A DNA stretch of 4,639 nucleotides. It comes from Candidatus Micrarchaeaceae archaeon. Lineage in GTDB: Archaea; Micrarchaeota; Micrarchaeia; Micrarchaeales; Micrarchaeaceae. Positions 3,001-4,639 of this stretch are shown piece by piece. Made by a program: the position numbers. Positions within the stretch are counted from its first letter, which is position 1, and the number at the start of each line of letters is the position of its first letter. The DNA is taken from assembly GCA_050013715.1 (NCBI GenBank), contig JBEKES010000058.1:1-4639 (forward strand), read 5' to 3'.

Positions 3001-4639
3001 TAGGCCCTCTTAATGTTTTGTGCGTTGTTGATGTTATTATGTGAACATATTCAACAGGGCTTATGTGCACGTTTCCCACTACCAATCCGGCAATGTGTGA
3101 TATGTCAGCAACAAGATAAGCTCCGCATTCCTCTGCAATGCCTGCAAATTCCTTGAATGGGAATTCCCTTACATAGGCTGTTGCACCTATCCAGATTAGC
3201 TTAGGCTTGTTTTCCATTGCAAGTCTTCTAACTTCTTCTATGTCTATGTATCCATCTGCCTTTACATGATAAGGAACGCTTTTGAAGAATTCTCCTGTTA
3301 CGCTCGCCTTCCATCCATGGGTAAGATGTCCTCCGTCTGTTAAATTAAGTCCCATTATAACATCATTGGGCTTGCACAAAGCCGCATAAACAGCAAAGTT
3401 AGCTGGAGATCCCGAATAAGCCTGCACGTTTGCATAGGGTACTTTAAAGAGCGATTTTGCCCTTTCAATTGCAAGTTTCTCTATCTCGTCTATGAATTCA
3501 TTTCCTCCATAGTATCTCTTTCCTGCATAGCCTTCAGAATACTTGTTGTTAAGAACTGTACCAAGCGTTGCAAGAACATCGGCGCTTGCAAAATTCTCGG
3601 AAGGAATCATCTCAAGCGAAGTCCTCTGTCGTTTCAATTCATTCTTTATGGACTTGAATATTTCAGGATCTGATTTTTTTAGATTTGATAGAATTCCCAC
3701 TAATACACCCTTACATTTAGTTTATGGAGGCAATATCTTTAAATGAATGCAGTTGCATTCCTACTTCATCGTTAGAATTGAATACTTCGATCTTAATTCT
3801 CTCTTTTTCTGCATCTGAAAGAAGCTGCTGAACTGCCAAATCACCGAGTATGCTGTCATTTACAAGTATTATGCTCACTTCATTGTTATCCAGTGCGATG
3901 CTTACATTTTCAATGCCGTATTTCGACTTTCCTGTGCTTAAATTAGTAAGAAATTCCTCTATTATCCTGAATTCCGTCCTTATGCGTTCTTTTTCCAGTA
4001 TTCTTGAGAACTTGTCGCTTTTTATGAGCTCATAGACTCCAGAGCGTTCCGCATTGCTTACACTTTCAAAAATAATCCTCTTGTTTATCTTTTTCAGTAA
4101 ACCTGTTGATTCGCCATAGGCCTTTACATCGTCTTTTGTGAAGCCAGGGCCTGCAATTACAACAGTATCCACTACCATGTCCTTTGCAATCTCAAGTATT
4201 TGGCCGAAATATTTATTTTGTTGCTCTTGGAAGTCTTTTGGGCTCATCCTCTTGCTCAATCTGCTGTATAATTCGTCCTTGAAGTCAAGCCCGTAGCCTA
4301 AAAGATAAGCTTGCAGTGCCTTTTCATCATCAAGCACAATAAGCCCAAGTCTTGGCCTCTTTGAATCTGATACCGCATTCTTTACAACATCAACAATATA
4401 GTCGTTCCATTCGCCCTTTATGATTTCGAAGATGTCACCAGGTGCTATGTTGATTGTATGATAACTATTTATTTTTATGTACTCCAAAGGTTTTCCATCT
4501 AATATTTTTCCAAGAACACGAAGGCGCATGGCATCCTTGTCAAGTTCTGTCTTTTCAGTCTTTAATGTTATTACAACTTTTTTTAATTCTCCTTTGTCGC
4601 TTTCGCTTGACTTGAATTTGCGCTCACTTTCAGATTTGA

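Follow-up and report, generated by a model that had tools for sequence, protein, structure and literature searches.

ABCE1 (Rli1), a twin-ABC ATPase of about 590 aa with an RLI Fe-S domain at its N-terminus, is the enzyme that splits ribosomes after the completion of a protein, and it has been thought to be universal. Splitting without it has also been described: yeast subunits separate spontaneously in vitro after release by eRF1 only (PMC3795251), and eIF3, eIF1 and eIF1A recycle ribosomes in an energy-free manner at low Mg2+, a reaction that eIF6 aids by keeping the subunits from rejoining (PMC5711452). The 70S ribosome of Sulfolobus is reported to be easily dissociated, with aIF6 being released by aEF-2 (PMC8024482), and for Slh1 of the eukaryotic RQT complex splitting by pulling has been proposed (PMC10946056). 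That supplementary tables on DPANN archaea might already show a gap at ABCE1, as the first-pass annotation of the present locus had suspected, turned out to be true, the zeros standing there unremarked. The supplement of PMC5498576 gives Rli1 as 0 in the ungapped genome of Mia14 and in AR20, AR10 and AR5 and as present in 11 of 15 DPANN, the table gives HflX as 0 of 15, and the main text contains neither ‘rli’ nor ‘translation’. In Dataset S7 of PMC12892359, 15 zeros form one block, and the last block, of about 95 columns, in which three cells differ from zero, we infer to be this order; none of the words ‘ABCE’, ‘recycling’ and ‘translation’ occurs in the main text of that paper. The accessible supplements of PMC7414124 gave no match, and Micrarchaeota are not named in the accessible part of PMC6143161. 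In a literature mostly outside the subscription journals, we found no published statement of ABCE1 loss in Micrarchaeota or DPANN.

The window, i.e., the whole stretch of 4,639 nucleotides that was analysed (contig C58), belongs to Candidatus Micrarchaeaceae archaeon (G000; 976,605 bases, 72 contigs, 93% complete). It carries the gene of pelota (aDom34; 3717..4637, minus strand), identified by the Pfam domains eRF1_1/2/3 and by TIGR00111 (E 9e-46), of which 306 aa were read, the 5' end being cut by the end of the contig (4637..4639), upstream of pelota, where ABCE1 is positioned in relatives. Serine hydroxymethyltransferase (2354..3700, minus strand; PF00464, E 2e-150) is a neighbour only and lies outside the finding; an IS200-type transposase (215-772) is followed by four small ORFs (773-2097) with no Pfam family. 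The C-terminal end of pelota is shortened (DIASIN, then the stop codon; 3717..3749, minus strand), lacking the L[RK][FY] of the GILRY-type motif, which has been linked to eRF3 binding and described as conserved in aDom34 (PMC2613156). Pelota was found in 85 of 86 genomes of the order Micrarchaeales, and its sequences from the order are monophyletic (in a pelota tree of quick form, used for monophyly only). The tail L[RK][FY] was lost in 36 of 36 sequences of the order and present in 32 of 34 from outside; as a marker of ABCE1 loss it was rejected, because eight of nine ABCE1-less genomes outside the order keep it. In an f9 genome without ABCE1 (G122, L070), pelota likewise stops before the RF of the tail motif.

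The absence of ABCE1 from the order is real. The Fer4_RLI family had no match in G000 at E<=10, and the full-length ABCE1 model NF009945 had 12 (the best scored 86 bits, where the cut-off is 469), none of them spanning more than one nucleotide-binding domain. A profile built from 10 Micrarchaeota ABCE1 sequences, five of them divergent, gave only single-domain, transporter-type matches in the six frames of G000 and of the single-contig order genome G038. Among 401 genomes of the phylum, NF009945 at E<=1e-40 matched none of the 178 from the order (G000, 93 of family f1, 83 of f2 and one of f3) vs 197 of 223 other Micrarchaeota, and it matched four of four archaeal control genomes; without the unpublished G029 and G197, which also enter the counts given for pelota, HflX and the Hel308-type helicase, the count is 0 of 176 and the conclusions are unchanged. 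(The sister family labelled f2 here was called f3 earlier.) Eight of the order genomes are single contigs (G016, G033, G099, G107, G193, G238, G038 and G042), and Fer4_RLI was over its cut-off in none of five such genomes; the three weak matches that it gave fell in frames of 32-62 aa. Both earlier claims, that the gene is missing from this genome and that it is missing order-wide, are thereby borne out. The further claim that no assembly gap is involved is proved by the relatives, although G000 alone could not have established it, the ancestral site lying past its contig end. That position, the 93% completeness of G000 and the lack of a match in about 12% of the outside genomes are what one might bring forward for a gene that is present yet unassembled or too divergent for detection. 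However, models of the NF009945 type detect divergent ABCE1 copies at E 1e-127 or better, the ancestral site is occupied by another gene, the ungapped genome of Mia14 is scored 0 in independent arCOG tables, and not even the single-contig genomes break the series of absences; such an artefact is already largely refuted and hardly credible.

Pelota also marks the place from which the gene was lost. It is the head-to-head neighbour of ABCE1 in 13 of the best 30 ABCE1 loci (which are skewed to few families), and among 16 further genomes with ABCE1 there are six in which the two genes are no more than 1.5 kb apart. Of 30 pelota loci from the order, 18 have a divergent dedA/VTT gene upstream and one has it downstream, the stop-free frames of the two genes being at most 253 bases apart in the seven pairs measured. 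The dedA copy of G000 is truncated where contig C63 ends, and contigs C58 and C63 probably join, since pelota and dedA are each cut at the 5' end and are head-to-head in relatives. With dedA at the old site next to pelota, the loss was a clean deletion, and gene content and synteny show that ABCE1 was deleted from the pelota-adjacent site in the ancestor of the order. The gene now at the old site was rejected as a replacement, because it encodes a DedA/VTT membrane protein.

The loss recurs in other DPANN lineages and is not unique to the order. The first-pass annotation had stated that nearly all other Micrarchaeota families keep ABCE1, which is right for most of their genomes, but family f16 lacks the gene (0 of 7), and gaps occur in f11, f13, f15 and f18 (confirmed in five of five genomes by a search with loose threshold). 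The ABCE1 sequences of f10, f11, f13 and f15 (L137-L141) have internal deletions, with the Fe-S cysteines and catalytic ABC motifs kept, and f13 genomes of 0.5 Mb keep the gene. With an 80% completeness filter, ABCE1 was missing in 58 of 151 Aenigmatarchaeota (the phylum of G442), compared to 9-12% missed elsewhere, and in 22 of 251 Nanobdellota (the phylum of G437), in which 229 keep it; the unpublished G841 and G842 are within the 251, and conclusions are unchanged without both. Incompleteness could explain the 22 gaps in Nanobdellota. In five related Nanobdellota-type genomes ABCE1 was found in none, and aIF6 was kept in five of five independent ABCE1-less genomes. The Fe-S clusters of ABCE1 have been discussed as a target of reactive oxygen species (PMC3442406), and two-cluster ferredoxin motifs numbered 2 and 3 vs 9 in G102, an ABCE1-bearing genome from outside the order; oxygen damage as the cause is plausible for the order but speculative for the other losses, and we did not retain it.

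The two bacterial alternatives are missing as well. HflX was found in none of 86 order genomes vs 14 of 14 control genomes, and RRF in none of five (G000 and four single-contig genomes of the order). With ABCE1, HflX and RRF all missing, another route of recycling is needed, as had been proposed, although the “unknown route” need not be a new enzyme, and the ATP-free route known in vitro from eukaryotes appears to fit the gene content best. The partners of ABCE1 are kept, in agreement with the earlier description: besides pelota, these are aRF1 (C4:22883-24082), aIF6 (C8:12792-13436) and RqcH, the last in two pieces (C51:938-2041 and C15:13436-14395). We found aRF1 in 30 of 30 cases, and it was present in 11 of 11 order genomes plus G000; aIF6, SBDS, aIF1, aIF1A and the stalk protein are present in both G000 and G038, aIF2, aIF5B, eS6, eS24 and eL24 are also kept, and so is aEF1A in the order. 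The split of RqcH was not tied to ABCE1 loss, since the C-terminal half is a separate gene in G102 too. Among the aligned aRF1 sequences, those of the ABCE1-less f11 genomes G056 (L259) and G148 (L260) are without the cysteine-bearing insertion in the C-domain that the other 28 have in some form; G102 has an aRF1 intein with LAGLIDADG domains (L146:9112-12054), and frames of 904-930 aa suggest an intein also in G145 (L261), G153 and G306.

None of the candidates tested for a replacement was common to all ABCE1-loss lineages. The EF1A paralogue at C13:3211-4458 was rejected as an Hbs1/eRF3 analogue, because it scores as CysN/EF1A and follows a gene that we take, by sequence recognition, to be CysD-like; the CysD-CysN pair (C13:2405-4458) is common to G000 and G038 and absent from G102. 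The same distribution was seen for a degenerate SelB-like factor without P-loop (C12:10889-11815), which was set aside, as it also occurs in ABCE1-bearing G085 and was not found in ABCE1-less G056 and G437. The ten ABC ATPases of G000, annotated as single-domain proteins, do have one nucleotide-binding domain each, but one of them (C25:5061-7547) is an 829-aa membrane-fused protein. A homodimer of a single-domain ABC protein as substitute was discarded, given that nine of ten in G000 and four of five in G038 have membrane partners, the remaining protein being presumably SufC-like, and there were no convincing release-factor paralogues besides aRF1 and pelota. The proteins common to G000 and G038 numbered 584; for 161 of these G102 gave no match, and for 31 just a weaker paralogue (G102 being the sole outgroup of this comparison, its small second contig left out). 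An unrelated splitting factor, perhaps lineage-specific, might hide among these 161, and about 20 of the 95 scanned had no Pfam family. The Pfam-scanned set (94 matches in G038) consisted, however, mostly of metabolic, membrane or DNA proteins with no unexplained soluble ATPase or GTPase, every ABC domain adjoins permeases or suf genes, and the GTPases are the standard set plus CysN, so that we think such a factor improbable.

The order does have an altered translocase. The original paper on the K+ site of translational GTPases is reportedly that of Kuhle and Ficner. In the single-copy aEF2 of G000 (C26:9904-12108), the P-loop contains a His and the Gly of switch I is replaced; all 12 readable sequences of the order have AHVHHGKT and R[RK][MI]TI, and all 17 from outside have AHVDHGK[TS] and RGITI. 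(G193 was unreadable at the site, and G148 and G355 were excluded as over-long frames; the frames of the latter two, L217 and L220, are about 1195 aa long and that of G193, L231, is interrupted near the N-terminal end, all probably because of inteins.) The exchanged Asp and Gly positions hold a stimulatory K+ in translational GTPases (bioRxiv 10.1101/2022.06.23.497301). Also characteristic of the order is an orphan gene of 108-121 aa (C27:7083-7409 in G000; further loci L105:4323-4688 and L396-L400; paralogue in G038 at L117:11701-12216), which was present in eight of eight order genomes tested and in none of four outside. In seven of seven genomes mapped it lies in the exosome operon, flanked by rpl37ae and rpoP, with 66% mean column identity. 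The orphan is part of a larger family that has no name and comprises 286 clusters, and this family was not found in G102.

A scan of GTDB genomes, with at least 120 listed matches (L262-L381 and L390-L395; four among them not aEF2), recovered the His-bearing aEF2 also in Thermoplasmata, Nanopusillus, other Nanobdellota and Aenigmatarchaeota, and among the matches listed the Gly of switch I was always replaced where it was read. The altered factor is thus shared by at least five groups of archaea (Micrarchaeales, Nanopusillus, a group of Thermoplasmata, 68 of 251 Nanobdellota and 6 of 151 Aenigmatarchaeota), and the translocase is predicted to have lost its potassium ligands repeatedly and independently of ABCE1. 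As a marker of ABCE1 loss it fails across lineages. ABCE1 stands beside it in 25 of 28 Thermoplasmata and in seven of seven Nanopusillus-type genomes (a tally over 48 of the at least 120 listed loci). Its frequency in ABCE1-less vs ABCE1-bearing genomes was 8 of 22 vs 60 of 229 in Nanobdellota (p 0.32) and 4 of 58 vs 2 of 93 in Aenigmatarchaeota (p 0.20), and five ABCE1-less genomes outside the order have an ordinary aEF2. It is against these figures that one has to weigh a remodelled aEF2 that splits the ribosome in the manner of EF-G, with aRF1/pelota or the orphan in the role of RRF. The strict distribution of both features, the function of the exchanged positions and the fixed place of the orphan speak for it, but the coexistence with ABCE1, the lack of association and the ordinary aEF2 of other loss lineages speak against it. 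Furthermore, the orphan has no family in ESM Atlas, Pfam, NCBIfam, PHROGs or PDB, no solved relative and no NTPase motif, and is missing from three other ABCE1-loss genomes. We regard splitting by aEF2 as unlikely, and somewhat more so a third kind of recycling, in which an aEF2 with rebuilt K+ site and the orphan of the SBDS-exosome-rpl37ae-rpoP operon would be EF-G and RRF reinvented with unrelated parts.

Hel308 is known as a DNA helicase. A Ski2-like helicase of Hel308 type (C45:716-2833 in G000; one cassette, about 705 aa; Walker A, DExH and SAT motifs intact) could conceivably pull the mRNA and split ribosomes like Slh1 of the eukaryotic RQT complex. It was found in 166 of 178 order genomes vs 44 of 223 outside, being near-universal in the order and in f10, f11, f17 and f18, i.e., outside in families with divergent or patchy ABCE1, and absent from f4, f7, f9, f12, f13 and f16. 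It is also present in ABCE1-less G442, and outside the order ABCE1 is lacking in 10 of 44 helicase-bearing genomes vs 16 of 179 others, a difference whose p of 0.017 is overstated because the pattern follows two or three clades. However, f16 lacks both genes (each 0 of 7), all four archaeal controls carry the helicase alongside ABCE1, it has no fixed translation neighbours, and there is one cassette instead of the tandem cassettes of RQT; we doubt that it splits ribosomes. Much the same doubt attaches to a supply of ABCE1 from the archaeal host through cytoplasmic bridges or nanotubes. Every loss lineage found is DPANN, aRF1 retains its L[RK]Y end, and a Micrarchaeota symbiont is entered by nanotubes of its host, whose lumen of 4.4 nm is described as sufficient for proteins to pass (PMC11329633), but the accessible part of that study shows no transfer of protein, biosynthesis is broad in several of the order's lineages (PMC12892359), the end of pelota is eroded, and ABCE1 would be required at every termination. 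Least probable among the biological alternatives are ribosomes that are seldom split, the 70S particles reinitiating on genes that are leaderless or coupled. It would suit this that a fraction of 0.43 and 0.48 of gene pairs are on the same strand and separated by <=20 bases, but ABCE1-bearing G102 has as many (0.52), and aIF1, aIF1A, aIF2, aIF5B and aIF6 are kept. A leaderless-type TATA at -30 to -27 precedes 92 of 274 first genes in G102 vs 37 of 276 and 22 of 172 (crude gene starts, three genomes); being rarer than in G102, it leaves a leaderless bypass unsupported.

The reading that we prefer, tentatively and with a probability of roughly 45%, is that aRF1 or pelota splits the ribosome slowly and without ATP, and that aIF6 together with aIF1/1A traps the subunits. 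No dedicated motor would then have replaced ABCE1. After release of the peptide aRF1, or pelota on stalled ribosomes, would remain in the A site, and with either of them in place the 70S ribosome would dissociate slowly without ATP; the 50S subunit would be trapped by aIF6 and the 30S subunit by aIF1/aIF1A, making the splitting one-way, and aIF6 would later be removed by aEF2 with SBDS. Such a slower route may suffice for small, slow, host-dependent cells, so that ABCE1, a costly two-cluster Fe-S protein, could have been lost repeatedly in DPANN. An ABCE1 that is shortened and divergent in sister families before the loss is expected under relaxed need. RqcH acts on split 50S subunits. Its retention and an excess of SD-like motifs (before 0.51 and 0.55 of operon-internal genes vs 0.12 and 0.26 in controls) suggest that free subunits are used, and the motifs with the full set of initiation factors argue for the use of free 30S.

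ATP-free splitting is suggested by the absence of a candidate motor from the three proteomes compared (G000, G038 and G102), and several points weigh against it. The precedents are mostly eukaryotic, come from in vitro work and from organisms that still need ABCE1, and to our knowledge eIF3, which the energy-free route needs, is absent from archaea. Since ABCE1 is kept by most of the equally reduced Nanobdellota and by f13 genomes of 0.5 Mb, a cell cannot dispense with it simply by having a small genome. Neither the order-wide alterations of aEF2 and pelota nor the fixed orphan gene is accounted for by this reading. The ribosome showed no sign of being weakened: in G038, eL24, eS6, eS24 and the 16S helices inspected were ordinary, and a changed 16S binding site was dismissed, nothing being evident in the first 700 model positions of this one genome (G000 is without most of its 16S). 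Compared to the 23S rRNA of G102 (L179:15032-17962), that of G038 (L109:8578-11406) is shorter by about 100 bases. Four genes of G102 that we label, by sequence recognition, eS27, Nop10, eL20 and Brix-like were not found in G000 or G038 (the corresponding regions of G000 are C1:54311-55480, C8:12792-14558 and C27:6942-7688). S27e is also reported absent in Mia14 (PMC5498576).

What emerges is archaeal translation without any known splitting factor, a gap that was latent in supplements, with no statement of the loss in the papers that we found. Living cells with an archaeal ribosome do without all three known splitting systems, and this several times over. How far recycling needs a motor, and which options an ancestor without ABCE1 or RRF had, becomes a testable question, and ribosomes and factors are obtainable from members of the order that have been grown in co-culture (Mia14, PMC5498576). 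ABCE1 is unsafe as a universal completeness marker for DPANN, and a translocase predicted to be without the usual potassium ligands is a separate oddity of several archaeal groups.

Compared to known systems, the order shares with ABCE1/aRF1/pelota recycling the factors aRF1, pelota, aEF1A, aIF6, SBDS, the stalk protein and RqcH, but differs in that the ATPase is missing order-wide and the GILRY-type end of pelota is lost. With bacterial recycling by RRF and EF-G it has in common an EF-G homologue, aEF2, the GTPase centre of which is altered, whereas RRF is lacking and the altered centre stands beside ABCE1 elsewhere; HflX, the bacterial back-up splitter of the controls, has no counterpart. 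The RQT system (Slh1/ASCC3) is matched by a Ski2-like 3'-5' helicase in most order genomes, but that of the order, missing in f16, is a single Hel308-type cassette, and the RQT form is tandem (PMC10946056). The most likely likeness is to ABCE1-free splitting in vitro: the archaeal counterparts aRF1, aIF1, aIF1A and aIF6 are all present, and what is a slow side route in organisms that need ABCE1 would here, without eIF3, be the sole route by which ribosomes are split.
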